Shown: positions 5,605 to 23,912 of the stretch, in pieces | How positions within the stretch are numbered: the first letter of the stretch is position 1 | How the letters are laid out: every line of letters starts with the position of its first letter | Position numbers and translations under genes: made by a program | DNA from: Clostridiales bacterium | GTDB taxonomy: Bacteria > Bacillota > Clostridia > Oscillospirales > Oscillospiraceae | DNA: 25,429 nucleotides | Direction: 5' to 3' | NCBI GenBank assembly: GCA_022768185.1 | Contig: JALEMS010000015.1 | Location: forward strand, 1-25,429 | The notes under the pieces: model-generated | Databases searched by the model: none | What the model saw: only the letters and a program-made list of their open reading frames with translations | What the model was told of the DNA's origin: nothing

Positions 5605-5900
5605 TCAGCTCTCTGGCTGCTGCCTGCCGCCTGCAAGGAAACGGCCCGGCAGCATAATAAGGCCCAGCACAATCACCAGAGCCAGCTGCACAAATACCGG
5701 AACCAGAGCAGCGCAAGCGACGCGCAGGCCCGCTACAAGCAGGGCGAGCGCGGCGAAAACAAAAAAAACAGACGCCGCAGTACGGGCGTCCGGAAGGGTG
5801 GCAGCGGTGCAGGGGGCAGTGCTGCCGGCGCAGGTGAAAGAAGCCTCTGCCATTTTGTTGACAGACGCCGTACCGGTTGCGTGCTTCGTATACATCGTCA
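5605..5900 (-). CDS. Hypothetical small membrane protein, about 98 aa, with two predicted TM helices in the C-terminal half
   Basis: AAAGGAG lies 9 nt upstream of ATG 5900 (MTMYTKH…). It has its own consensus promoter and its own terminator. The hydrophobic stretches are FFVFAALALLVAGL and ALVPVFVQLALVIVLGLIML. Confidence 0.5.
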
Positions 5901-6101: not shown

Positions 6102-6136
6102 GCGAGTCTGCCGCACGGAGAAGCCGTGCGGCAGAC
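6102..6136. repeat. Perfect 15-bp inverted repeat (stem-loop) downstream of the lectin-domain gene
   Basis: gagtctgccgcacgg / agaag / ccgtgcggcagactc. There is no adjacent U-tract on either strand. Confidence 0.6.
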
Positions 6137-6170
6137 TCAATGGCAGACCGTGGGGGGCTATGCTTCCCCG

Positions 6171-7806
6171 TCAGCGGTCCTCATATTCGCAGATGAAGCC
6201 GATCTTTCCGCTGTATGCCGTGGGATAATCGGCCACCGGGTCGTTTCGGCTGTCGTTATAGATCCAGCTGCCCTTGCGCTTCCAGAGCATCAGGTAATCC
6301 TCGGCCGTACCGTCGGAGTCGTAGGCCGAGGGCTGGCCCTTGCCCCAGCGGAAGAAGCTGATCTGCTCACCGGTCACCCAGCTCCAGTTGCCCATCAGGT
6401 CGCGATAGGCGCCGGCCCAGACGAGGCCGATGCCCTTCGAATCGGCCAGCTTCGTCACCTCGGCCAGCTCCGTCTCGTCCGAGATGGTCACCAGGTGCCC
6501 GCCCATCTGCTCGCACAGCGCCTTGGCCATGCTCCAGGAGCAGTCCCGGATCACCAGCTCATAGCGCGGGTTTTCCGTCTGCGTCGGCTGGGGAGGATCG
6601 GGCTGGGGGTCGTCCGGCTTTGACGGCGTGGTCGGCTGCGTCGGCGTGGTCGGCTGCGTCGGCTGCGTCGGCTGCGTCGGCGTGGTCACGTTCGTGGGAT
6701 TGTTTTCCGCATCCGGCCCGGACGGATCGTCCGGCTCAGTCGGATCGCCGGGGCTTTCCGGGTCGTCCGGCTCAGCGGGATCGCCGGGGTTTTCCGGGTC
6801 GTCCGGCTCGGCGGGATCGTCCGGCTCGGACGGCTGGTTTTCGTCCGGTGTGTTGGGAACGGAGACGTCAATGGGCGTACCCGGCTGGTTTTCGCCCGGC
6901 TGATTTGCCGGCTTATGGAACGAGCGCAGCAGCAGCGCCGCCAATATGATGGCCACGCACGCAACGCCCGCAACGATGTACGGCATCACACGGCGGCGCT
7001 GGGCCGACGCGTCCTGCGCAGCAGGCGGCACGTCGTGCGGCCGTGCGGCAGACGGCTTCTCTGCTTCCGGCGCAGGAGCCGGAACCGGCTCGGCAGCCTC
7101 TGCGGGCGCATCGTGCTCCTGCGGGGCAGCCGGCATTTCCTCCGGCGCTGCCGTCCCGGCAGTCTCCGTCTCGGGCGCAGCCGGCTCCGCTTCCGGAGTC
7201 TCCGGCTCGTCCGGCAGCTCCATCACAAGGCCGGCGGGCACAGGCACGGGCGTTTCACACGCTTCGGCGCACGCATTGAGCGCATGCAGCAGCTCTGCCG
7301 GCGTTTTCCATCGGCCATCCGGCGCAAAGGAAAGCGCCTTCATCACCGTCTGGCGCAGCGCGGGGCTGCCGTGCTCCGGCTCGGGCAGCGGCTGACCGCT
7401 CATACGCAGCTTGAAGGCCTTCGCCCGCTCGGCGGCGGACATCGTCTCCGACGCGGCAAAGGGCATTCGTCCGTTGTTGAGCGCGGCATACAGCATCAGG
7501 CCGACAGCGTACAGATCCGCCTGCACCGTACCCGAGCCGCTCCAGAACAGCTCCGGGGCCAGATACTCCAGTTCCTCGGACGACCACTTGCGGTCTGCCG
7601 CGACAGAGCCGCCCCCGCCGAGACCGACCTCGCCCTCCGGCGTAAAGCTGACGTTTCCGGCCTGCACGCCGCCGACGCATCTGCCGGCCCGGTCGTGCAG
7701 CGCAAGACACAGGCCGCGGCCAAGCGCAATGATCTCGCCCTCCGTCAGCCCGGCCAGGCGACCGGTCAGCAGGTATTCCTGATTCAGGTGAAATTGTTCA
7801 GACATA
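6171..7806 (-). CDS. Membrane protein with three parts. The N-terminus is a cytoplasmic degenerate protein-kinase C-lobe (pseudokinase-like). A single TM helix follows. The extracellular part has Pro/Thr/Asp-rich tandem-repeat linkers and a C-terminal C-type lectin-like domain.
   Basis: Kinase subdomain VIII/IX signature: LAPELF…DLYAVGLMLYAALNNGRMPF. The Gly-rich loop, VAIK, catalytic Asp and DFG are all absent. TM helix: VMPYIVAGVACVAIILAALLL. C-type lectin-like pattern: C…WAGAYRD…WSWVTGE…EDYLMLW…WIYND…FICEYE. AAGGAG lies 7 nt upstream of ATG 7806. The in-frame upstream ATG at 7847 has no RBS. Confidence 0.75.
6625..6687. repeat. 9-nt tandem repeat, 7 copies (ggctgcgtc / ggcgtggtc), inside the CDS. 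It encodes a (T)TPTQP linker.
   Basis: Direct inspection of the sequence. Confidence 0.8.
6726..6835. repeat. 36-nt tandem repeat, 3 copies, inside the CDS. It encodes PAEPDDPENPGD-type units.
   Basis: Direct inspection. The unit gtccggctcagyggatcgccggggytttccgggtc is repeated. Confidence 0.75.
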
Positions 7807-8022
7807 TTCGACTCCTTGCGAACATCCGCACAGTGCTTTTCTTCCATCGGCAGTTGCCTATTCTGAAATTATAGCGCAAGCCGCACAAAAAGGAAAGAGT
7901 GCATCACAAAATATTTACAACTGGTTTTTTCCCGGAGATTTGGGGAGACAAGCGCGGAAATCTGTGCTATCATGACGGCATAAGCCCGCCGCGCCGTGCG
8001 CCGCGGCACGACGGAGGAAGCC

Positions 8023-8646
8023 ATGGTCACGCTGTATTACACCGATATCCGCGCGCTTGCGCCCGTGTACGACGCGGCGCTGGCACGCATCACGCCCGGA
8101 CGAAAGCGGCGCATCGCCGCGCTGCGCCGGCCGGACGACCGGCTGCGCAGCCTCGGCGTGGGGCTGCTGCTGCGCGCGGTGCTGGACGTGCGGGATGACG
8201 CGCAGCTCGTCTACGGCGCGCACGGCAAGCCGCTGCTGCCCGGCGGTCCGCAGCTGAGTCTGGCACACGGCGGGGATCTGGCCCTGCTGGCCGTCAGTCC
8301 GCTGCCGGTGGGCACGGACGTGCAGCGCATCGTGCCGGTGCGTCCGGCGCTGGCCGCATACGTCTGTACGCCGGAGGAGCTGCGCTGGCTGCAGGCCGGG
8401 GACGAACCGGAGCGCCGCTTTGCCGTGCTGTGGACGCGCAAGGAAAGCGTGATGAAAGCCACCGGGCTGGGTCTGGCGCTGGGGCCGCGGCGGCTGTGCG
8501 TGCTGCCGGAGGCCGGACCGTGCCCTGCCGGGGGCGCGCTGTGGCAGGCCGAGCACCGCGAGCTGGACGGGCACATGCTGGCCGCCGCCGGGCCGGAGCC
8601 GCCGGCGCTGACGCTGCGCCGGCTCGATGCGGCGCAACTGCTGTAG
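8023..8646 (+). CDS. 4'-phosphopantetheinyl transferase, Sfp/EntD type
   Basis: The motifs GAHGKP, SLAHGGD, PVGTDVQRI and WTRKESVMKATGLG match PPTase motifs. GGAGGA lies 5 nt upstream of ATG 8023. No carrier-protein, NRPS or PKS gene is in the window. Confidence 0.75.
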   Translation: MVTLYYTDIRALAPVYDAALARITPGRKRRIAALRRPDDRLRSLGVGLLLRAVLDVRDDAQLVYGAHGKPLLPGGPQLSLAHGGDLALLAVSPLPVGTDVQRIVPVRPALAAYVCTPEELRWLQAGDEPERRFAVLWTRKESVMKATGLGLALGPRRLCVLPEAGPCPAGGALWQAEHRELDGHMLAAAGPEPPALTLRRLDAAQLL

Positions 8647-11876: not shown

Positions 11877-13121
11877 ATGGCCTACAGTGAGTTGATTAAG
11901 GATTACGAGCGCATCCGAGACTATATGCGCTCGTTTTTCGTCTACGGCTTCCGCAGCCGCGAGGAACACGACGCCAAAAGCGCCCGCAGCTACGACAACG
12001 AACGCCGCCGCATCGAAAGCTGGCTCGGCGACTGCCTCTGCTCCCGGCAGGACGCCGGGGGAAAGCGCGTCTTTCTCTGCGTGGACAGCCGCGCCGTATC
12101 CCGCAACCCGCTTTACCGGTCGTTCCGCACCAAAAGCTTTACCGACCGGGACATCACGCTGCACTTTTACCTGCTCGATCTGCTCTCCGGCGGCGAGGCG
12201 CTCACCGTCGGCGAGATCGTCGGGCGCATCGAAACGGACTATCTCTCCCAGTTTCCCGCAGATTATCCCCTCGACGAATCCACCGTGCGCAAGAAGCTCA
12301 GGGAATATGAAGCGCTGGGTCTGCTGCGCAGTGAAAGGACCGGACGCACGGTACGCTACCGGCTGGCGCAGTCCGCCGTCCGGCAGGAAACGTGGCTGGA
12401 CGCCGCCGCCTTTTTCTCGGAGGAAGCTCCGGTCGGCGTGATCGGCTCGTTTTTCCTTGACCGGTTTGCGCATACGCCGGATTATTTCGGCTTCAAGCAC
12501 CATTATCTGCTGCATGCGCTTGACAGCGAGCCGGCCTGCGCGCTGCTGACGGCCATGCGCGAACGGCGCACGGTCGAGCTGCAGGTGCAGAGCCTGCGCA
12601 CCGGCGCGCGGATGCAGCGCACCGTCTTTCCCCTGCGCCTGTACGTCAGCACGCAAACCGGGCGGCAATATCTGCTCGGCTGGCACTACCGCAGCCGGCG
12701 CATGCTCTTTTTCCGGCTCGACGCCGTCCGTCGTGTGACGCCCGGCGCACCGGAGCCGGACGCCGCCCGCTTTCAGGACGCCTGCGCGCGCTTTCAGCAG
12801 CATCTGTGGGGCGTCTCCGCCGGCTCGGAGCGCGGCACGGCGCACATCGAGCTGACCGTCCGCGCCGGCGAGGATGAGGCGCACATTCCCCGCCGTCTGC
12901 AGCGCGAGCGCCGCTGCGGCACGGTCGAGCGGATCGGCCCGGACGTCTGGCGCTTCACAGCGGATGTGTACGACGCCATGGAAATGCTGCCCTGGCTGCG
13001 CACGTTCCTGGGGCGCATCGTGTCGCTCGAATGCAGCGACACGCGCGTCACCGACGCCTTTTATGCCGATCTGGCCGAAATGGCCGCGCTGTACGGAGGG
13101 AACGACGATGCTGTTCAGTGA
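11877..13121 (+). CDS. WYL-domain transcriptional regulator, paralog 1. It has a winged HTH, a WYL domain and a C-terminal WCX-like region.
   Basis: wHTH: LTVGEIVGRI…STVRKKLREYEALGLL. WYL core: RQYLLGWHYRSRRMLFFRLDAVRRV. AGGAGG lies ahead of ATG 11877. An extended -10, TGGTATGAT, is at 11829-11837. Confidence 0.75.
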   Translation: MAYSELIKDYERIRDYMRSFFVYGFRSREEHDAKSARSYDNERRRIESWLGDCLCSRQDAGGKRVFLCVDSRAVSRNPLYRSFRTKSFTDRDITLHFYLLDLLSGGEALTVGEIVGRIETDYLSQFPADYPLDESTVRKKLREYEALGLLRSERTGRTVRYRLAQSAVRQETWLDAAAFFSEEAPVGVIGSFFLDRFAHTPDYFGFKHHYLLHALDSEPACALLTAMRERRTVELQVQSLRTGARMQRTVFPLRLYVSTQTGRQYLLGWHYRSRRMLFFRLDAVRRVTPGAPEPDAARFQDACARFQQHLWGVSAGSERGTAHIELTVRAGEDEAHIPRRLQRERRCGTVERIGPDVWRFTADVYDAMEMLPWLRTFLGRIVSLECSDTRVTDAFYADLAEMAALYGGNDDAVQ

Positions 13122-14043
13122 GCTTTACGGCTGCTATTTCCACACGGTCTCGGCCGTGCTGGCCGAGGCGGTGCAGCACACGCTGACCGGCGAGCGGCTG
13201 CGCGCGCTCGTGCAGCGGCACGCCTTCGCCGAAAGCGGGCTGACCATCCCCGCCGCGCTGCAGACGCGCTGGCCGCTGCTGAAGCCGGATCTCTCCACGC
13301 CGCTGCGCCGCGCGCCCTCCCTGCCGCTGACGCTGCTGGAGCAGCGCTGGCTGAAAACGCTGCTGCAGGATCCCCGCATTGCGCTGTTTGCGCCCGATCC
13401 GACGGGGCTGGAGGACGTCGAGCCGCTGTTCGACCTGTCCGATGTGGTGTATTTCGACCGGTATCTCGACGGCGACCCCTACACGGATCCGGCCTACATC
13501 GCCGTTTTCCGCCGGCTGCTGTGCGCCGTTCAGACGCACCGGCGGGTACAGCTGCTGCGCACCGTGCGCTCCGGCGCCGTACGCAGCGCCGAATGCCTGC
13601 CGCTGCGGCTGGAGTATTCGGCCAAGGACGACAAATTCCGCCTGCTGACCGCCGGAAACCGCAGCTGCCGCACCGTCAATCTGGCCAACATCCGCAGCTG
13701 CCGCCTGCTCGAGCCGGTCGATCCGTCCGGCCTCCGCGAGCCGGCGCGCCGCCTGCGCACGCTGACCTTCCGGCTGACGGACGAGCGCAACGCCCTGGAG
13801 CGGGCGCTGCTGCATTTTTCCCATTTTGAAAAGCAGACCGTCCGGCTGGACGGGCGGCACTACGAGGTGACGCTGCGCTATGAAAAGGAGGACGAGACGG
13901 AGCTGCTGATCCGTGTGCTCTCGTTCGGTCCGATGCTGCGCGTCACCGCGCCGGAGGACTTCGTTGCCCTGGTACGTACGCGCCTGCAGCGCCAGCTGCA
14001 GCTGACCGCAGTCCCCTCCCCGCCACGTGAGCCGCCGGAATAA
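13108..14043 (+). CDS. WYL-domain protein, paralog 2. It has a WYL domain and a C-terminal WCX-like region, and is translationally coupled to paralog 1.
   Basis: WYL core: DKFRLLTAGNRSCRTVNLANIRSCRLL. Its N-terminus is related to paralog 1 (FSELYGCYFHTV versus YSELIKDYERI). GGAGGG lies ahead of ATG 13108, which overlaps the WYL-1 stop by 14 nt. The longer track ORF from 12874 is out-of-frame antisense-style noise. Confidence 0.7.
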   Translation: MLFSELYGCYFHTVSAVLAEAVQHTLTGERLRALVQRHAFAESGLTIPAALQTRWPLLKPDLSTPLRRAPSLPLTLLEQRWLKTLLQDPRIALFAPDPTGLEDVEPLFDLSDVVYFDRYLDGDPYTDPAYIAVFRRLLCAVQTHRRVQLLRTVRSGAVRSAECLPLRLEYSAKDDKFRLLTAGNRSCRTVNLANIRSCRLLEPVDPSGLREPARRLRTLTFRLTDERNALERALLHFSHFEKQTVRLDGRHYEVTLRYEKEDETELLIRVLSFGPMLRVTAPEDFVALVRTRLQRQLQLTAVPSPPREPPE

Positions 14044-14127: not shown

Positions 14128-14312
14128 ATGGGCCCGTAAGCTCCCCTGAGCGTGTGGCTGAACGGCTCACCGCGGTGCACCGGGACATTCCGACGTGTAT
14201 GCCGGCGGGCTTACGGAAACGATCGCCTGTCAAGCGATGGGGTCAAACGCCCCTCCAACGTGGGTTCGAATCCCACCCGCGCCGCCCGCGCGGCCAGTGG
14301 TTTGGTTTTGGA
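14128..14312 (+). ncRNA. Candidate tRNA-like ncRNA or leader element. It has an anticodon-like stem-loop (atcgc/CTGTCAA/gcgat, anticodon position GUC). A long variable hairpin follows (gggg/tcaaacg/cccc). A consensus T-arm follows (GTGGG-TTCGAAT-CCCAC). The 3' strand of the T-arm overlaps an intrinsic terminator. There is no acceptor-stem partner.
   Basis: Extended -10 TGATAGGAT at 14120-14128. T-arm at 14260-14276. Terminator stem ccac-ccgcgc/gcgcgg-gtgg at 14273-14300, followed by TTTGGTTTTGG. A canonical tRNA cannot be folded because no sequence complementary to ccgcgcc is present upstream. Confidence 0.35.
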
Positions 14313-14552
14313 AGCTCCGCTTCCGCACAAGAAAAGCGCCCCTCCCCGCGCCGCGCGGCCAGCGTCCCCGGCTTTTGCTGCGCCGTACGGCAATGCCGCC
14401 GGGCCTTGTCTGCCGCGGATACCGTGCAGGCCCGCCGCCGGCCAGAGGCCCCGCCTTCCGCCGCCGAGCCGGCCGTGCTCAAGCGTCCAGCCGCCCGGCG
14501 CGCATCAGGGGAGCCGTGCATGACATTTTTTACCTTTCCGGAGGACAGAGAT

Positions 14553-15659
14553 ATGAAGCCCGTTACCATCCATGAAAATCAGCGCGGCCTGCTCTTCAAG
14601 GACGGCCGCTTCCTTCGCCCGCTCGCCCCGGGCCGCCACCGACTGCCCGGCCGGCAGCTGGCCGAGGTACTGCCGCTGGAGGACGCGGTGCGCTCCGACC
14701 GCTGCACGCTGGACGCCCTGCTGGAAAACGCGGAGCTGGCCGCACAGGTCACCGTCGTGGAGGTCGGCGACCGGCAGCTGGCGCTCTGCTTCCTGGACGG
14801 CAAGTTCTCCTGCGCGCTGTGCAAGGGGAAATACGCCTTCTGGAACACCCGGCAGACGCGCACCTGGCGCCTGGTGGACATCTCCAGCCCCACCGTCGCC
14901 GACGACGTGCCGACCTACCTGTTCCGGCTGCTGCCGCCGAGCCTCTACCTCCGCGCGGAGGTAGCCGAGCACCAGCGGGCGCGCCTGTGCTACGACCGGC
15001 GGTTCGTCCGCCTGCTTGAGCCGGGCGTGTACTACTTCTGGAAAAACGACGTGAAGGTGGAGCTGACGTACGTCGACACCCGTCTGACGCAGGAGACCAT
15101 CACCGGCCAGGAGCTGCTGACGCTGGATAAGGTGAGCGTACGTCTGAGCTTCGTGTGCAGCTACCGCATTGCAGACTGCCTGCGCGTGCTCACCGAGATC
15201 GACGATTGGGCCGAGCAGCTGCACGTGGCCGCGCAGCTGGCCATGCGTGAGTTCGTCGGCCGCCGCCGGCTCGACGAGCTGCTGGAGAGCCGCGAGGAGA
15301 TCTCCGCCTTCGTGCTGGCCCGGCTGCGGGAGAAAGCCCCCGCGCTGTTTCTTGAGATCGTCGACGGCGGCGTGCGCGACATCATCCTGCCCGGCGAGAT
15401 CCGCGAGATCATGAACACCGTTCTGATTGCCGAGAAGCGCGCGCAGGCCTCCGTCATCACCCGCCGCGAGGAGGTGGCCTCCACACGCTCGCTGCTCAAC
15501 ACCGCAAAGCTGATGGACGAAAACCGGACGCTCCGTCGGCTCAAGGAGCTGGAGTATATCGAGCGCATCTGCGGCAGCGTCGGCAGCATCAGCCTCAGCA
15601 GCTCCGGCGACCTGCTCGGACAGCTGACGGCTCTGCTGGGCGGCTCGTCCGCCTCGTGA
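14553..15659 (+). CDS. SPFH/band-7 (stomatin/prohibitin/flotillin/HflKC-like) domain protein, with no N-terminal TM segment, so apparently cytoplasmic
   Basis: The SPFH core, VSVRLSFVCSYRI…EQLHVAAQLAMREFVG…EISAFVLARLREKA, plus a coiled-coil C-terminal region. GGAGGA lies ahead of ATG 14553. The long track ORF from 14154 is an upstream extension with no start support. Confidence 0.7.
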   Translation: MKPVTIHENQRGLLFKDGRFLRPLAPGRHRLPGRQLAEVLPLEDAVRSDRCTLDALLENAELAAQVTVVEVGDRQLALCFLDGKFSCALCKGKYAFWNTRQTRTWRLVDISSPTVADDVPTYLFRLLPPSLYLRAEVAEHQRARLCYDRRFVRLLEPGVYYFWKNDVKVELTYVDTRLTQETITGQELLTLDKVSVRLSFVCSYRIADCLRVLTEIDDWAEQLHVAAQLAMREFVGRRRLDELLESREEISAFVLARLREKAPALFLEIVDGGVRDIILPGEIREIMNTVLIAEKRAQASVITRREEVASTRSLLNTAKLMDENRTLRRLKELEYIERICGSVGSISLSSSGDLLGQLTALLGGSSAS

Positions 15660-15696: not shown

Positions 15697-16899
15697 ATGA
15701 TCGAAGTGACCGGGGCATACAACACGGCCAGATGCTTCTGCCGGACGCTGGAGGACTCGGCGCGCCGGCAGATCCAGGCCGTCTGCGACCAGCCGGCCTT
15801 TGCCGGCAGCAAGATCCGCATCATGCCGGACGTCCACGCCGGCATGGGCTGCACCATCGGCACCACCATGACCGTCGCCGACAAGCTCGTGCCCGGCATG
15901 GTGGGCGTGGACATCGGCTGCGGCATGGAAACCGTGCGTCTGGAGGAAAAGACGCTCGACCTTGACCGGCTCGACCGCGTCATCCGCGCATGCATTCCCG
16001 CCGGCCGGGAGATCCGCAGCACGCCGCACCCCCTCTGCGAACAGATCGACCTGACCGCGCTGCGCTGCGCCGACCGGGTGAAGCTTGACCGCGCCCGCCG
16101 CAGCATCGGCACGCTCGGCGGCGGCAATCATTTTATTGAGATCGACCGCGGCGACGACGGCAGCCTCTATCTCGTCGTTCACTCCGGCAGCCGCCACCTC
16201 GGCAAGGAGGCCGCGACGCTCTATCAGGACGAGGGGCGGCGCGCCATGTGGGGCGGCGCGCGGCATCAGATCGAGGAGACCATCGCCGCGCTGAAGGCCG
16301 AAGGCCGCGTTCAGGAGATCCAGCCGACGGTCTCCCGCCTCCGGCGGGAGCACAAGCTGGACATTCCCCGCGACCTGGCCTATGTGGAGGGCCGGCTGTT
16401 CGACGATTACCTGCACGACATGAAGCTCATCCAGCGCTTTGCCGCACTCAACCGCAAGGCCATAACGGACGTCCTCCTCACACAGCTCGGCCTCACCCCC
16501 GCCGAGGAATTCACCACCGTCCACAACTACATCGACACCGACGCGATGATCCTGCGCAAGGGCAGCGTGTCGGCCCGCGCCGGGGAAAAGCTGCTCATCC
16601 CCATCAACATGCGCGACGGCAGCCTCATCTGCATCGGCCGCGGCAACGAGGACTGGAACTGCTCGGCCCCGCACGGCGCCGGCCGCCTGATGAGCCGGGC
16701 GGAAGCCTTCCGCAGCCTGACGATGGACGAATTCCGCGCCGAGATGGCAGGAATTTTCTCCACGTGCGTCTCACAGGAGACGCTTGACGAGTCGCCCATG
16801 GCCTACAAGCGCATGGACGAGATCGTCGGCGAGCTTGGTCCCACCGCGGAGATCGTTGCGCGCATTCTGCCCATCTACAATTTCAAGGCGGCGGATTAA
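15697..16899 (+). CDS. rtcB: RNA-splicing ligase RtcB (3'-phosphate / 2',3'-cyclic phosphate RNA ligase)
   Basis: Metal-ligand and GTP-binding motifs: MPDVHAGMGCTIG, GGGNHFIEI and SAPHGAGR. GGGAGG lies 9 nt upstream of ATG 15697. Confidence 0.9.
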   Translation: MIEVTGAYNTARCFCRTLEDSARRQIQAVCDQPAFAGSKIRIMPDVHAGMGCTIGTTMTVADKLVPGMVGVDIGCGMETVRLEEKTLDLDRLDRVIRACIPAGREIRSTPHPLCEQIDLTALRCADRVKLDRARRSIGTLGGGNHFIEIDRGDDGSLYLVVHSGSRHLGKEAATLYQDEGRRAMWGGARHQIEETIAALKAEGRVQEIQPTVSRLRREHKLDIPRDLAYVEGRLFDDYLHDMKLIQRFAALNRKAITDVLLTQLGLTPAEEFTTVHNYIDTDAMILRKGSVSARAGEKLLIPINMRDGSLICIGRGNEDWNCSAPHGAGRLMSRAEAFRSLTMDEFRAEMAGIFSTCVSQETLDESPMAYKRMDEIVGELGPTAEIVARILPIYNFKAAD

Positions 16900-16940
16900 A
16901 AGGAAAAACCGCCGCCTTGCCGAAACCGGAGGAAAACGTC

Positions 16941-18221
16941 ATGCTCAACCTGCCCCCACAGGCCGTCGAGGCACTGCGCGCGCTGGAGGCCGCCGGCTTT
17001 GAGGCCTTTGTCGTCGGCGGCGCGATGCGCGACGGCGTCCGGGGCGTGCAGCCGAAGGACTGGGATCTTGCCACGAATGCCACGCCCGAGCAGGCGGCCG
17101 CCGTCTTCACAGGCCGGCACATCATCGAAACCGGCCTCAGGCACGGCACCGTCACCGTCGTGCTCGATCATATGCCGCTGGAGATCACGACCTATCGCGG
17201 CGACGCGCCGACCCTGCAGGCCGACCTGGCCCGCCGGGACTTCACCTTCAACGCCATGGCCTATCATCCCCGCACCGGCCTGCTCGACCCCATGGGAGGC
17301 CGGGCCGATCTGGCGCGGGGGCTTGTCCGCTGCGTCGGCGAGGCCGACCGCCGCTTTGCGGAGGACGGGCTGCGTATTCTGCGCGCGCTGCGCTTTGCCG
17401 CCGTGCTGGGCCTGCGCGTGGAGGACAAAACGGCCGCCGCCATGCGCCGGAACCTGCCGCTGCTGCCGCAGGCCGCGCCCGAACGCATCCGCGCCGAGCT
17501 GACCGGACTGCTGTGCGGCCGGGACGCGGGCCGGGTGCTGGCGGAGAACGCAGACATTGCAGCCGCCGTGCTGCCGGAGCTGGCCCCGCTTTTCGGCTTT
17601 GCGCAGCACAACGCGCACCACGACCGGGACGTCTGGCAGCACACGCTCGCCGTCGTCGACGCAGCCGCGCCCGAGCCGGTGCTGCGATGGGCCGCGCTGC
17701 TGCACGACCTCGGAAAGCCCGCCTGCTTCTCGCTTGGCCCGGACGGCGCCGGCCACTTTTACGGGCATGCCGAACTCAGCGCGAAGCTGGCCGGAGCCAT
17801 CCTCACGCGTCTGCATTCCGACACCGCCGGACGCGCGCAGATTGTCGCGCTCGTCCGCTGGCACGATGTGCCCATCGTGCCGGAGCGGCGGGCCATGCGC
17901 CGCCTGCTGCGCCGTCTGGGCGAGGACACGGTGCGCCGTCTTCTGGCGCTGCGCATCGCTGACACGCGCGGGCAGGCCCCCGCCTGTCAGGGCCGGCTCG
18001 AAACGCTCCGGCAGGCCGGGGCCGTCGTCGACACGCTGGTGGCCGAGGCCGCCTGCTTTTCGCGGAAGGATCTGGCCGTGACCGGGCGCGATCTGCTCCC
18101 GCTCGGCCTGACCGGGCATGAGATCGGCGCGGCGCTTGAGCGCTGCCTCACCGCCGTGGTGGAAGAGGCCGTGCCGAACGAACGCGCGGCGCTGCTGGAC
18201 TATGTGCGCCGCGGCGGCTGA
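16941..18221 (+). CDS. cca: CCA-adding enzyme / tRNA nucleotidyltransferase, with PolyA-polymerase-type head and HD domain
   Basis: GGAMRD, RDFTFNAMA and EDGLRILRALRFAA motifs, plus the HD motif LHDLGKP. GGAGGA lies 7 nt upstream of ATG 16941. The track start at 16917 is TTG without an RBS. There is no terminator between rtcB and cca. Confidence 0.85.
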   Translation: MLNLPPQAVEALRALEAAGFEAFVVGGAMRDGVRGVQPKDWDLATNATPEQAAAVFTGRHIIETGLRHGTVTVVLDHMPLEITTYRGDAPTLQADLARRDFTFNAMAYHPRTGLLDPMGGRADLARGLVRCVGEADRRFAEDGLRILRALRFAAVLGLRVEDKTAAAMRRNLPLLPQAAPERIRAELTGLLCGRDAGRVLAENADIAAAVLPELAPLFGFAQHNAHHDRDVWQHTLAVVDAAAPEPVLRWAALLHDLGKPACFSLGPDGAGHFYGHAELSAKLAGAILTRLHSDTAGRAQIVALVRWHDVPIVPERRAMRRLLRRLGEDTVRRLLALRIADTRGQAPACQGRLETLRQAGAVVDTLVAEAACFSRKDLAVTGRDLLPLGLTGHEIGAALERCLTAVVEEAVPNERAALLDYVRRGG

Positions 18222-20918: not shown

Positions 20919-21086
20919 TCACGGATGATTCCGACTGCAAATACTCCTTTGTGTTGCAATCGTAAGCAGGGTATCTCCAAGCTGCGTCAGCGCAGCGCCC
21001 AGCAGATTGATCTCATCCTCGGTCAGCTTACAGGCAAGCGCATTGGCAACGGCAGTGATGGAAGCTGTCAATTCACATGAATTCAC
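20919..21086 (-). CDS. Unannotated small ORF, 55 aa (MNSCELTASITAVANALACKLTEDEINLLGAALTQLGDTLLTIATQRSICSRNHP). Hypothetical helical protein.
   Basis: GTG start with GGAGG 11 nt upstream. Good codon usage. The six-frame track cannot show an ORF of this length. No family assignment is possible by eye. Confidence 0.35.
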   Translation of the reverse strand: MNSCELTASITAVANALACKLTEDEINLLGAALTQLGDTLLTIATQRSICSRNHP

Positions 21087-21175
21087 AAAACAAGCACCTC
21101 CACACTATTATATGAACACAGGTCCGGAGCGTGTATGCGCCTTGTTCTGCCGGCCACGATCAGAAAATCGGCAGA

Positions 21176-21862
21176 TCAATTTTTGTCGCGGCTCTGTTCA
21201 TAGAGAACGAATTTCAGATTTCGGTCGCAGACCGCCAGAAAAACGTCCTTCGCAGAGCTGATGTGGCGCTGCTTCAGCTGCTTGTCCAGCCAGGTCAAAT
21301 CCAGTCCCATGCGCTTCAGGTTGTCCTCCAGGATCCGGCCGTCCATAATCAATTCCGTGAACAGCAATTCCTGCTCGGGGGCCAGATTCAGGTCGTTCGG
21401 CGTAGCCGGCCGTTGACTGCTTACCGGAAGAATCGTAAGCTTCCCATTGTACTCGAAAATGGCCGTTTGTATGCTCGTCAGGTCAAAATAGCCCTGCTGT
21501 CTGCACATGACCATAAATTCACTGAGATCCAGCTTGGCCTTTTTCATATTTTCACGGTACAGCTTTCCGTGATCCATGAGGATGGTCGGTGTGCCATTGA
21601 GATACTTGCGCGATCTCGGCGCTTTATTGGAAATGACACTCAGCAGCAGCGTAATTGCGCCGTAGATCACCATGGCGGTAAGCGGTTTCCAGGGCTGCTC
21701 CAGTTCTGTAGCCATTTCAGCTGCGATCGAACCGATGGTGATCCCGGTGATATAATCGAAAAAATCCAGCTGAGCGATTTGCTTGTGCCCGACAAATTTG
21801 GCCACGATGAACAATACGACAAACGACCCCAATGTGGTCAGGCAAAGTATCAAAAAACTCAT
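21176..21862 (-). CDS. DUF421 (YetF-like) membrane protein
   Basis: Two N-terminal TM helices, then a soluble domain matching the YetF/YdfS/YkjA pattern. AAGGGGAG lies 6 nt upstream of ATG 21862. An alternative start is at 21868. Confidence 0.65.
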   Translation of the reverse strand: MSFLILCLTTLGSFVVLFIVAKFVGHKQIAQLDFFDYITGITIGSIAAEMATELEQPWKPLTAMVIYGAITLLLSVISNKAPRSRKYLNGTPTILMDHGKLYRENMKKAKLDLSEFMVMCRQQGYFDLTSIQTAIFEYNGKLTILPVSSQRPATPNDLNLAPEQELLFTELIMDGRILEDNLKRMGLDLTWLDKQLKQRHISSAKDVFLAVCDRNLKFVLYEQSRDKN

Positions 21863-22000
21863 ATGCATCTCCCCTTTCTCTCTATTCTGACCGGAAACCG
21901 GGCAAGCATTCACGCCCGACCGCACCGATTCCAAAAAAACGGTTCACCGGAATGCAGCGGGTTTCATAATGTGGATCAGGTACAGAAAGGAGTGTATCAC

Positions 22001-22441
22001 ATGGAATCTGATTTCCCTGTCCGGGATCGCTGCAGCCATTGTAAAACCGATCACGGCCCCAGGCCGTTTGTTGCCGGGATCACGCAGCTGGCTCAGCAGA
22101 ACCGGAATTTTCGCACAGCTATTTGGACAGGATGTCACTTGCAGATGACTCTCATGAGTATCCCCCTCTGTGGTGAAATAGGTTGGGAGATGCATCCGGA
22201 CACAGATCAGCTGATCCGTGTAGAAGCAGGAAAAGCAACGCTCCGCATGGGAGCTTGTAAGGAAAAGCCGGACGTCACGCGGCAGCTCGGCACCGGAGAC
22301 GCCGTCTTTGTGCCGGGCGGCACATGGCACCAGGTTGTCAACAGCGGGAACGGCCCGCTGAAGCTTTCGTCTGTCTATGCGCCGCCCCAGCATCCCAGAG
22401 GAACCATCCATTGCACAAAAGATGATGAAGCGCATGGATGA
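22001..22441 (+). CDS. Cupin-domain protein, about 146 aa
   Basis: Cupin motifs: GEIGWEMHPDTDQLIRVEAG and GDAVFVPGGTWHQVVNSGNGPL. AAAGGAG lies 9 nt upstream of ATG 22001. The long track ORF from 21131 is antisense to the DUF421 gene. Confidence 0.65.
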   Translation: MESDFPVRDRCSHCKTDHGPRPFVAGITQLAQQNRNFRTAIWTGCHLQMTLMSIPLCGEIGWEMHPDTDQLIRVEAGKATLRMGACKEKPDVTRQLGTGDAVFVPGGTWHQVVNSGNGPLKLSSVYAPPQHPRGTIHCTKDDEAHG

Positions 22442-22538: not shown

Positions 22539-23912
22539 ATGGGAATAACCAATTCCAATAAGGAACTGAGCGCCGCACGCATTGAATGCGGCGGCACTTT
22601 TCAGGTAACGCTGTCTTTAACGGCAGCGCCTGACATTGTGACAAACCCAACCGATATCGTGCTGATTCTCGACCGATCGGGGAGCATGGCGGGCAGTGCG
22701 CTGGCAAATCTGAAGAACGGCGCCAAGGCATTCATCGACATCATTGACGAGGCCACGGACGGCACACAGGACGGGCAAATCGGATCGGGAAGCCGCATCG
22801 CCATCGTCAGCTTCGCAAGTACGGCGACCAAGGACACGCAGCTGATCACCTCGGTCGCCGATTTGAAGTCTGCGGTGGACGCCCTGGCCGCCAGCGGCAG
22901 CACCAACCACGCAGACGCCTTTACCAAAGCATCCGAGCTGCTGGCAGCCCCCTCCACCAACGCCCGTGTCATGGTGATGTTCACCGATGGTCAGACGACC
23001 GCGGGCCCCGATCCCAGCCCCATTGCTGCCGCGGCCAGAGCGGCCGGCGTCATCATCTATGCCATCGGATTATCCGGCCGCGGCGGCGTGGACGTTTCCG
23101 CGCTGGAAGACTGGGCCTCCAAGCCTTCATCCGCCTATGTGGCAATTACGCCGGATGACGCGGAACTGGAGGAACTGTTTAAGGACCTGGCCAGAAACAT
23201 TGCAAAGCCCGGCGCGACCAACATTGTGATCGCCGATCAGGTGTCCGACTGCTTCCGGATCACCTCCGTTTCCATGCCCACAAAGGGTACAGCCAGCCTG
23301 CTGGACGCCAGCACAGTGCAGTGGAAGATTGACGAGTTGGGCACGACCCAAAGCGAGGCCGCAGTGCTGGAATTCACGGTTGAGCATATCGGCCCCTGTT
23401 CCGGAACCATCGAGGTAAATGAGTCTATCACCTACGATGACACGGAAGGCAATGTCGTGAGCTTCCCTTCCCCTGAGCTGGAGGTAGACTGCGATATCAT
23501 CGTCCTGCCGGAGCTTTGCCCGGAACCTGTTGACCTTACGGTGAACGGCTGTGAGGATACGCTGGAATTTGATGCCGGCGACCTTGGGATGGAATCCCTC
23601 GGCCGCATCGTTCAGTTGAGCGTCACGCTCCAAAAGGTCTGTCCCAACCGGCGGGTTGCTTTGGCGGCCATTCTGACCGAGGTGGATGACCGTGGCCTTG
23701 AATACAGGCGCGGTATGAAAACCATGGTGATTCCGGCCCACACGAAGGAGGCGTGCCAGGATGTGACGGTCCGGTGCATCAAGTTTGTTCTTCCGGAAAG
23801 TCTGGATGTCTCCGGCTCAGCAGGCTCCATCTGCAATGCCCGGAATTTCAAGGCACGCTTTGTTGCGCACTATATCGACAACGACTTTGCGTGCTGCAAC
23901 ACGGTACTGTAA
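22539..23912 (+). CDS. von Willebrand factor A domain protein with a C-terminal DUF11-like beta domain and a Cys-rich tail. No signal peptide is detected.
   Basis: MIDAS motif LILDRSGSMAG, plus the vWA pattern IAIVSFASTAT…MVMFTDGQT. DUF11-like: ATNIVIADQVSDCFRITSV…VLEFTVEH. GAGGAAG lies upstream of ATG 22539. Confidence 0.7.
   Translation: MGITNSNKELSAARIECGGTFQVTLSLTAAPDIVTNPTDIVLILDRSGSMAGSALANLKNGAKAFIDIIDEATDGTQDGQIGSGSRIAIVSFASTATKDTQLITSVADLKSAVDALAASGSTNHADAFTKASELLAAPSTNARVMVMFTDGQTTAGPDPSPIAAAARAAGVIIYAIGLSGRGGVDVSALEDWASKPSSAYVAITPDDAELEELFKDLARNIAKPGATNIVIADQVSDCFRITSVSMPTKGTASLLDASTVQWKIDELGTTQSEAAVLEFTVEHIGPCSGTIEVNESITYDDTEGNVVSFPSPELEVDCDIIVLPELCPEPVDLTVNGCEDTLEFDAGDLGMESLGRIVQLSVTLQKVCPNRRVALAAILTEVDDRGLEYRRGMKTMVIPAHTKEACQDVTVRCIKFVLPESLDVSGSAGSICNARNFKARFVAHYIDNDFACCNTVL

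Follow-up and report, generated by a model that had tools for sequence, protein, structure and literature searches.

In Gram-positive bacteria, receptor serine/threonine kinases of the PASTA type (PknB, Stk1, PrkC and StkP) are built from a cytoplasmic N-terminal kinase fold, a juxtamembrane linker, one transmembrane (TM) helix and an extracellular module that binds glycans or the cell wall. Animal type II C-type lectin receptors, such as CD23, MGL/CLEC10A, ASGPR and those of the DC-SIGN type, have an N-terminal cytoplasmic tail, one TM helix, an extended neck and a C-terminal carbohydrate-recognition domain (CRD). A gene with features of both is found in a 25,429 nucleotide (nt) stretch of DNA from a bacterium of the Oscillospiraceae (assembly GCA_022768185.1, contig JALEMS010000015.1), the whole of which is termed the window here. 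This lectin gene, located at 6171-7805 on the reverse strand, as are all of its features given below, encodes a bitopic protein of 544 residues followed by a stop codon (6171-6173), in which a pseudokinase domain consisting of a kinase C-lobe alone is joined through a TM helix to a C-type lectin-like domain (CTLD). It is very nearly certain that the protein has this architecture and topology and is without catalysis; that the gene encodes a non-catalytic type II (N-terminus in, C-terminus out) surface receptor of a gut Oscillospiraceae bacterium is, as a whole, the best explanation, with a probability of roughly 0.5.

The window protein differs from the PASTA kinases in being without the N-lobe and the catalytic residues, such that it is not an enzyme, and in having a CTLD in place of the PASTA repeats, to which neither Pfam nor NCBIfam found a match. 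It likewise differs from the animal lectin receptors in being bacterial, in having a neck of Pro/Asp/Thr repeats rather than a coiled coil, in missing the second disulfide, and in having a folded pseudokinase lobe in the cytoplasm rather than a short motif-bearing tail. An initial annotation of this DNA had termed the protein an inverted analogue of eukaryotic receptor kinases; this orientation is not special, being the normal one both for PknB/Stk1-type kinases and for animal type II lectin receptors.

Among membrane-associated bacterial pseudokinases, EssB is a bitopic protein whose pseudokinase is cytoplasmic, and the carbohydrate-binding domain of MviN is extracellular. EssB/YukC of type VIIb secretion resembles the window protein in being a membrane protein of Firmicutes whose pseudokinase fold has a structural rather than a catalytic role (PMC9600267). 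It differs in that its pseudokinase is bilobal and encoded within type VII secretion operons, of which the window contains no genes; no Pfam match to EssB was found in the window protein at E<=1. MviN (Rv3910), a Mycobacterium tuberculosis protein of the ActPs3 family, is similarly a membrane protein combining an intracellular pseudokinase with a carbohydrate-binding domain, and its pseudokinase, which does not bind ATP, is a scaffold phosphorylated by PknB to recruit FhaA (PMC12599244). By contrast with the window protein, MviN is actinobacterial, its pseudokinase is bilobal, dimerises via the N-lobe and is fused to a lipid II flippase, and its ectodomain is not a CTLD. In Clostridium difficile, the membrane kinase CD2148, which lacks PASTA domains, alters PrkC-dependent outcomes (PMC8262956).

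In terms of function, the cytoplasmic domain is best compared with the KIND domain, a non-catalytic, stand-alone kinase C-lobe without an ATP-binding lobe, which works as an interaction module and binds formin (PMC3415841). The described KIND proteins (Spir, PTPN13/FRMPD2 and very-KIND) are animal and cytosolic, however, and KIND is without the G helix (PMC3415841), whereas the window C-lobe retains a helix at the G position, carrying the invariant Arg134. No Pfam match to the KIND profile was found in the window protein at E<=1, and the C-lobe is of independent origin, from bacterial PknB-like kinases. Bacterial pseudokinases have been little studied, and the family to which this protein belongs is frequent among Oscillospiraceae of the gut. 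Seven pseudokinase families, all bilobal, are covered by two publications of 2025, an atlas of Ser/Thr kinases in bacteria and a review of their pseudokinases, neither of which mentions lectin-linked or C-lobe-only proteins (10.1101/2025.01.12.632604; PMC12599244); a full-text search of the literature for the combination of C-lobe and lectin returned nothing relevant. The family is probably absent from such surveys because it falls below the Pfam kinase threshold.

The cytoplasmic kinase C-lobe

Residues 1-185 (7251-7805) form a domain extending from alphaD/E to alphaI of the kinase fold, with no N-lobe. The Pfam Pkinase profile (PF00069) matches it at 25.0 bits, below the gathering threshold of 31.7, with the match confined to profile positions 161-255 of 263, and the NCBIfam PknB_PASTA_kin model (NF033483) is matched in part, at 48 bits against a cutoff of 450. 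A profile of the N-terminal domain built from 35 family sequences matches Mycobacterium tuberculosis PknB over residues 113-289 with an E value of 3e-17, the next matches being the Staphylococcus aureus kinase 4eqm, PknE, StkP and PknA. An AlphaFold2 (AF2) model of residues 1-190 alone has a mean predicted local distance difference test score (pLDDT) of 92.6 and a predicted template-modelling score of 0.90, and its helices fit the order alphaE, alphaEF, alphaF, alphaG, alphaH, alphaI. Foldseek matched this model to kinase domains with template-modelling scores of approximately 0.7 when normalised to the query. The structurally nearest relative of the C-lobe is the S. aureus PASTA kinase. The initial annotation had placed a kinase signature in the N-terminal 120 residues; the likeness is borne out by the PknB match, and by the general Pkinase profile below threshold and in its C-terminal part only, but the domain is longer, at about 185 residues.

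No sequence corresponds to the Gly loop, VAIK or alphaC, the protein beginning at the level of alphaD/E. Alignment with PknB puts V44-G45-G46 (7668-7676), followed by N51, in the place of HRD, and G61-L62-G63 in that of DFG, without its Asp and Phe. Column conservation was assessed over 129 relatives lacking an N-lobe and the window protein. The HRD column holds H or R, then G in 97%, then G (68%), N (19%) or A (9%), and never Asp; the catalytic-loop Lys is represented by W, R or Y, and the DFG column reads x-L-G. These residues and the missing N-lobe sequence agree with the earlier statement that the Gly-rich loop, VAIK, HRD Asp and DFG are lacking and that the domain is a pseudokinase. Judged from these residues, the C-lobe cannot carry out normal ATP binding and phosphotransfer catalysis.

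The core of the C-lobe is kept over the same set: P84 (100%) and E85 (99%) of the APE motif (7551-7559), D97 of alphaF (100%), R165 of subdomain XI (94%) and R134 (100%), the last within a motif, RAxALRRRMxGE, in the helix assigned to alphaG. The pair formed by the APE Glu and the subdomain XI Arg, the alphaF Asp and alphaG are thus retained. Compared with the defining features of Hanks-type kinases, the domain has the C-lobe core but neither the N-lobe nor the HRD and DFG Asp residues, and scores under the Pfam threshold. The C-lobe is a conserved, folded module and not a relic, derived from Firmicute PknB/Stk1-like kinases; the description of the cytoplasmic part as a fragment does not fit what is a complete, well-folded C-lobe. 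A split kinase with a separately encoded N-lobe was considered and rejected, since the C-lobe itself is missing the Asp residues needed for catalysis and metal binding.

The low Pkinase score and the restriction of the match to the C-terminal part of the profile would also be expected of a 5'-truncated receptor-kinase pseudogene, or of a kinase whose N-lobe was lost by assembly error. Such a decaying remnant or artefact is nevertheless extremely improbable, given that the start codon has a good ribosome-binding site and the upstream gene is divergent and 190 nt away, that the same N-terminus occurs in most of the 150 best clusters of relatives, that the N-terminal extensions of the few members having them are of low complexity rather than N-lobes, that AF2 models the C-lobe alone with high confidence, and that the same protein comes from eight independent assemblies.

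Topology, lectin-like domain and stalk

The C-lobe is followed by an acidic cytoplasmic linker rich in Pro, Glu, Ala and Thr (residues 186-272, about 87 residues; 6990-7250), delimited from the translation and the composition of the linkers in the family and ending in RRR at the membrane. The single TM helix comprises residues 273-293 (VMPYIVAGVACVAIILAALLL; 6927-6989), with a hydropathy maximum of 2.6 over 19 residues. In all 59 relatives of the same architecture, the N-terminal flank of this helix is richer in Lys and Arg than the C-terminal flank (means of 6.4 and 1.4); the window protein's own charge bias is weak, at 3 against 2, and it has no N-terminal signal sequence. Since the bias in the relatives obeys the positive-inside rule and there is no such signal sequence, the C-lobe is placed in the cytoplasm and the lectin domain outside, in agreement with the initial annotation's single helix with the kinase-like end in and the lectin out. 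In many relatives, such as P0002 and P0003, a FGKPxxEL motif and then an amphipathic stretch (ELSxIExxMVxII) come directly after the C-lobe; this may be a linear interaction motif, and the window protein has it in degenerate form or not at all (VMELPDE).

The extracellular C-type lectin-like domain (residues 412-544; 6174-6572) is identified by Pfam, structure prediction, Foldseek, profile matches to PDB entries and conservation within the family. The Pfam Lectin_C profile (PF00059) matches at 30.7 bits, above its cutoff of 22.6, with an E value of 5.6e-7, and the AF2 model of the domain, made from an alignment of 31 sequences, has a pLDDT of 95.9 and adopts the CTLD fold, which is defined by two helices, two sheets and a long loop region. 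Foldseek matched this model to CD23, MGL, CL-K1, MBP-C and mannose-receptor CRD4 (E values of 5e-9 to 9e-8, template-modelling scores of 0.68-0.79, mostly 0.73-0.79, with 5e-9 and 0.74-0.79 for CD23, MGL and CL-K1), and the profile of the lectin family matches DEC-205, PLA2R, the mannose receptor, CD23 and others. A C-type lectin-like ectodomain had been proposed from the initial reading of the DNA, and these matches to animal CRDs substantiate it.

The textbook pattern of the Ca2+/sugar site in C-type lectins is EPN...E...WND. At the EPN/QPD position the window protein has Q491-P492-S493 (6327-6335), assigned from the family alignment and that with DEC-205, in which the EPS of the family aligns with EPN; EPS is present in 28 of 30 relatives. 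This is followed by E502 and by N517-D518 (6252-6257), the latter within a W-x-Y-N-D motif where the canonical pattern reads WND. Among 31 sequences, E/Q-P-S, the subsequent Glu and W-x-Y-N-D vary little or not at all, E502 and N517 being invariant and D518 nearly. By collinearity with the textbook pattern, most ligands of Ca2+ site 2 appear to be kept, with Asn replaced by Ser, forming a putative site, and glycan binding by the domain is plausible on this reading of the motifs. The EPS or QPS at this position is a further likeness to the animal type II receptors, as are CD23, MGL and CL-K1 as the top structural matches. C431 and C539 are candidates for the long-range disulfide.

Between helix and lectin domain lies an extracellular stalk rich in Pro, Asp and Thr (residues 294-411; 6573-6926), which is 118 residues long against a family median of 56. 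It is encoded in part by a 36-nt tandem repeat (6714-6824), defined with Tandem Repeats Finder (TRF) and by alignment of alleles, of which the 12-residue unit DPAEPDDPENPG is present in three copies in the window; TRF reports a period of 36 at 6723-6824, with 2.8 copies and 90% match. A second, 9-nt repeat tract at 6597-6687, which encodes (P-T-Q)n plus a 3' edge, was delimited by TRF, reporting periods of 9, 18 and 36 at 6615-6687, and by DNA alignment. The repeats are the principal site of variation between strains. An exact look-up found no record of the window protein in public assemblies. Relative to the nearest public allele, L040, the 1635-nt lectin gene has one substitution outside the repeats; its other differences, six substitutions and four indels that keep the frame (-9, -9, +3 and -12 nt), all fall within 6597-6664. 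Full-length alleles of 520, 532, 535 and 544 residues occur in the 90%-identity cluster, and eight aligned alleles of the same species carry two, three or four copies of the 12-residue unit along with differing PTQ tracts; they have only three variable positions outside the repeats, and both folded domains are essentially invariant. The initial annotation's repeat-encoded linkers, and its expectation that their length would vary between strains, are thereby upheld. None of the features that it recognised, from the kinase signature to the lectin domain, is owing to chance.

Diversity-generating retroelements classically target C-type-lectin folds, and weak PADLOC and NCBIfam matches link the protein to the anti-phage defence kinases PD-T4-6 (best 64 bits), MADS Mad6 and BREX PglW. 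It is nonetheless highly implausible that the gene encodes a defence kinase of these types or a hypervariable retroelement target. The matches cover just the C-lobe part of the kinase models, with NCBIfam scores of 30 against 460 and 20 against 990; the protein has no catalytic residues; and the neighbours of the gene are housekeeping genes, with no defence-gene context. As for a retroelement, the window contains no template-repeat copy of the lectin region, and the lectin domain is identical in all eight alleles.

Family architectures and possible functions

Relatives were gathered by an exhaustive search with the N-domain profile and a genome pattern scan. A word-indexed protein search with the full protein returned only five relatives, because the low-complexity linkers swamped the word index, and one with the N-domain alone returned none. 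The profile search yielded 154 clusters (50% identity) at E<1e-30, the match in most of them beginning at residue 1, and a single 90%-identity cluster of the family contains 932 member sequences. In the best 150 of the 154 clusters together with the window protein, classified with local hidden Markov models and hydropathy, the order C-lobe, TM helix, CTLD was found in 59 clusters. The genome scan identified 34 loci encoding relatives, with both domains matched in all but two. The labels on most of the records are Oscillospiraceae, Candidatus Scatomorpha or other Clostridia, while those left over resemble gut metagenome bins; loci L015, L016, L018, L024, L028 and L031 are filed under Escherichia coli, Collinsella aerofaciens, Bacteroidaceae, Hallerella and Phascolarctobacterium bins, and these contigs are probably mis-binned, since the family members with consistent taxonomy are Clostridia.

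Other members combine the C-lobe and TM helix with different ectodomains. In P0100 these are followed by nine SH3_3 repeats, in P0071 by a Listeria-Bacteroides repeat, and in P0045 by SH3_3 and a weak lectin domain, while further members carry ectodomains without a family assignment. In this the family resembles a set of modular receptors, with the C-lobe as the component that stays constant and the ectodomain as one that has several alternatives, and exchanges such as that for the SH3_3 repeats of P0100 or other surface repeats parallel the PASTA domains of PknB-type kinases. In P0012, P0013 and P0037, a complete kinase domain with G-loop, HRD and DFG is directly followed by one to three degenerate copies of the C-lobe only; P0094 has the same layout, with HRD and DFG present and a G-loop not found by pattern. 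The degenerate copies have HGA, HCA or RQD instead of HRD, with no N-lobes between them. P0012 has four C-lobes in a row and C-terminal DUF285/BspA-like repeats. No description of such tandem C-lobe arrays behind a kinase was found in the literature consulted. The closest bilobal relative, P0004, matches the family with an hhalign probability of 99.8 and has the alphaG-region motif in common with it. Its catalytic loop has HRN for HRD, with G-loop and DFG kept, and from these residues it may be inactive or atypical. Three members in which the domain begins at residue 100-135 (P0064, P0087 and P0116) were examined as ancestral full kinases and rejected, their extensions being acidic and of low complexity, with no G-loop or VAIK.

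The fusion of C-lobes to active kinases suggests, at the level of sequence, that the free C-lobe modules may work with such kinases. Under the proposed mechanism, the lectin domain would bind a glycan, whether a wall polysaccharide of the bacterium itself or one from host or diet, and the repeats of the proline-rich stalk, which is of strain-variable length and holds the domain off the membrane, would tune its reach through or beyond the wall. The C-lobe would serve as a protein-docking module, like the eukaryotic KIND domain, and would most probably engage a Hanks-type kinase of the same cell, or its substrates or phosphatase, via the activation-segment/alphaG face, acting as docking partner, pseudo-substrate or scaffold. 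Clustering or localisation dependent on a ligand outside would then modulate Ser/Thr phospho-signalling inside. By analogy with the systems above, this signalling co-receptor mechanism is a tentative proposal, with somewhat less than even chances. Were the C-lobe to dock onto Hanks kinases, it would represent a simple natural system for C-lobe-mediated kinase regulation, a glycan-sensing route for abundant commensals and a bacterial parallel to the animal type II C-type lectin receptors. A broader proposal, which is doubtful as it stands, is that the C-lobe is the first bacterial counterpart of KIND, a mobile stand-alone lobe that arose from Clostridial PknB-like kinases and acts in trans as a docking site or decoy for Hanks-type kinases; joined through one TM helix to interchangeable surface modules (C-type lectin, SH3b or other repeats), it would constitute a new class of non-catalytic co-receptor, by which gut commensals would couple Ser/Thr phospho-signalling to the glycans that they recognise, be these from host, diet or wall.

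Several observations weigh against a glycan-sensing receptor that signals. The domain-fusion argument for a link to kinases is only suggestive. No kinase, PP2C phosphatase or FHA gene is present within the 25-kb window or was seen within approximately 8 kb at the 24 of the 34 related loci that could be scored, and no second kinase-like open reading frame (ORF) was found near these 24 loci. The C-lobe has no strictly conserved phospho-acceptor in the activation segment, position 75 being Ser or Thr in only 57% of members. In the lectin domain, the second canonical disulfide pair is absent, with Tyr and Ser/Arg at its positions, and the number of Cys residues varies from 0 to 6 across the family; as this disulfide is missing and the Asn of EPN is Ser, Ca2+ and sugar binding are not assured.

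These points bring into consideration a surface lectin or adhesin pure and simple, directed at host mucin, dietary glycans or other cells, in which the C-lobe would be a folded anchor, a determinant of export or retention, or a means of placement at a site such as the septum, with no signalling. Public records name the relatives just 'lectin-like protein' or 'hypothetical protein', the gene is a lone one without signalling neighbours, and repeat copy number differs between strains, as expected of exposed surface proteins; variable-length Pro-rich stalks are typical for surface proteins of Gram-positive bacteria. A plain anchor, however, would need no 185-residue domain in which a kinase C-lobe core and a family-specific alphaG motif are kept across more than 150 clusters at 50% identity, and the C-lobe occurs beside active kinase domains as well as a number of unrelated ectodomains, which suggests that it carries the shared function of the family. 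This alternative is accordingly judged unlikely, though it is the strongest of the competing accounts; were it correct, the protein would still be a defined, strain-variable lectin of the gut microbiota with a testable ligand.

A different ligand would give a sub-variant of the co-receptor mechanism, in which the protein is a factor in cell-envelope homeostasis and not a sensor of the environment: the lectin domain, in the manner of PASTA or SH3b domains, would bind the cell's own wall or capsular polysaccharide, and the C-lobe would recruit or sequester a PASTA kinase or wall enzyme at sites of wall synthesis. SH3_3/SH3b domains are cell-wall-binding modules, so that the sister architecture of P0100 speaks for this possibility, as does the S. 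aureus PASTA kinase being structurally nearest to the C-lobe; MviN, together with FhaA (PMC12599244), and the C. difficile kinase CD2148 (PMC8262956) provide precedents. Against it, no wall-synthesis genes adjoin the lectin gene, the 118-residue stalk and its length polymorphism suggest a reach past the wall, and the lectin domain is most closely matched by animal CRDs that bind terminal sugars, leaving this variant improbable.

Gene start, neighbours and other features of the window

The lectin gene lies within an ORF at 6171-7847, the first ATG of which has no ribosome-binding site in the upstream sequence. The ATG at 7805 (MSEQF...) has a Shine-Dalgarno sequence, AGGAG (7812-7816), 7 nt before it, and its Met is the counterpart of the first residue in P0001-P0003, which are close homologues; the coding sequence is therefore taken as 6171-7805. 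Relative to the extent of 6171-7806 given in the initial annotation, the stop end is unchanged and the start moves by one base. A TATAAT hexamer at 7868-7873 is a possible -10 element by consensus match only; no -35 element was called, and a promoter scan made no full-promoter call there.

A 4'-phosphopantetheinyl transferase gene (7996-8646, forward strand) lies divergently upstream, at a distance of 190 nt, and is likewise the divergent neighbour of the L040 allele. On the downstream side comes a small hydrophobic ORF and, beyond it, a branched-chain amino-acid (liv) ATP-binding cassette transporter operon. The lectin gene stands alone, without operon context, and none of the neighbours in the window, which also include an M18 peptidase, is kept beside the homologues: the liv transporter, the phosphopantetheinyl transferase, the peptidase and the others were all without conserved synteny. 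In one subclade (loci L015-L034), the gene always follows the same divergent block, recognised by eye as guaB-like, mnmA-like and mnmG-like genes and then a gene of about 215 residues, often along with a small lipoprotein-like gene; also by eye, this block has a housekeeping look and contains no signalling genes.

A perfect 11-bp inverted repeat (TCTGCCGCACGG...CGTGCGGCAGA) is located at 6109-6137 on the reverse strand, approximately 35 nt past the stop codon of the lectin gene. It has no T-run after it, and may be a variant factor-independent terminator or a protective hairpin. No Rfam match in the window reached the gathering score, the one downstream of the lectin gene scoring 17 bits against 50. 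The small ORF between the lectin gene and the liv operon (5605-5900, reverse strand) encodes about 98 residues (MTMYTKHATG...) with two hydrophobic stretches and has a GGAG ribosome-binding site but no family assignment; with a promoter-like site at 5976-5948 and a terminator-like site at 5570-5556, it apparently has its own promoter and terminator.

Elsewhere in the window, genes for two adjoining WYL-domain proteins precede those for an SPFH/Band 7 protein, an RtcB RNA ligase and an enzyme of the CCA-adding/poly(A) polymerase family (11877-14043 on the forward strand, 14154-15659, 15697-16899 and 16917-18221), a block that may be an RNA-repair module under WYL control. The region at 21001-22000 has a G+C content of 0.50, against 0.60-0.72 elsewhere in the window. 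The genes here code for proteins with a Cupin_2 domain (21131-22441) and a VWA domain (22539-23912), and the region may have been horizontally acquired.

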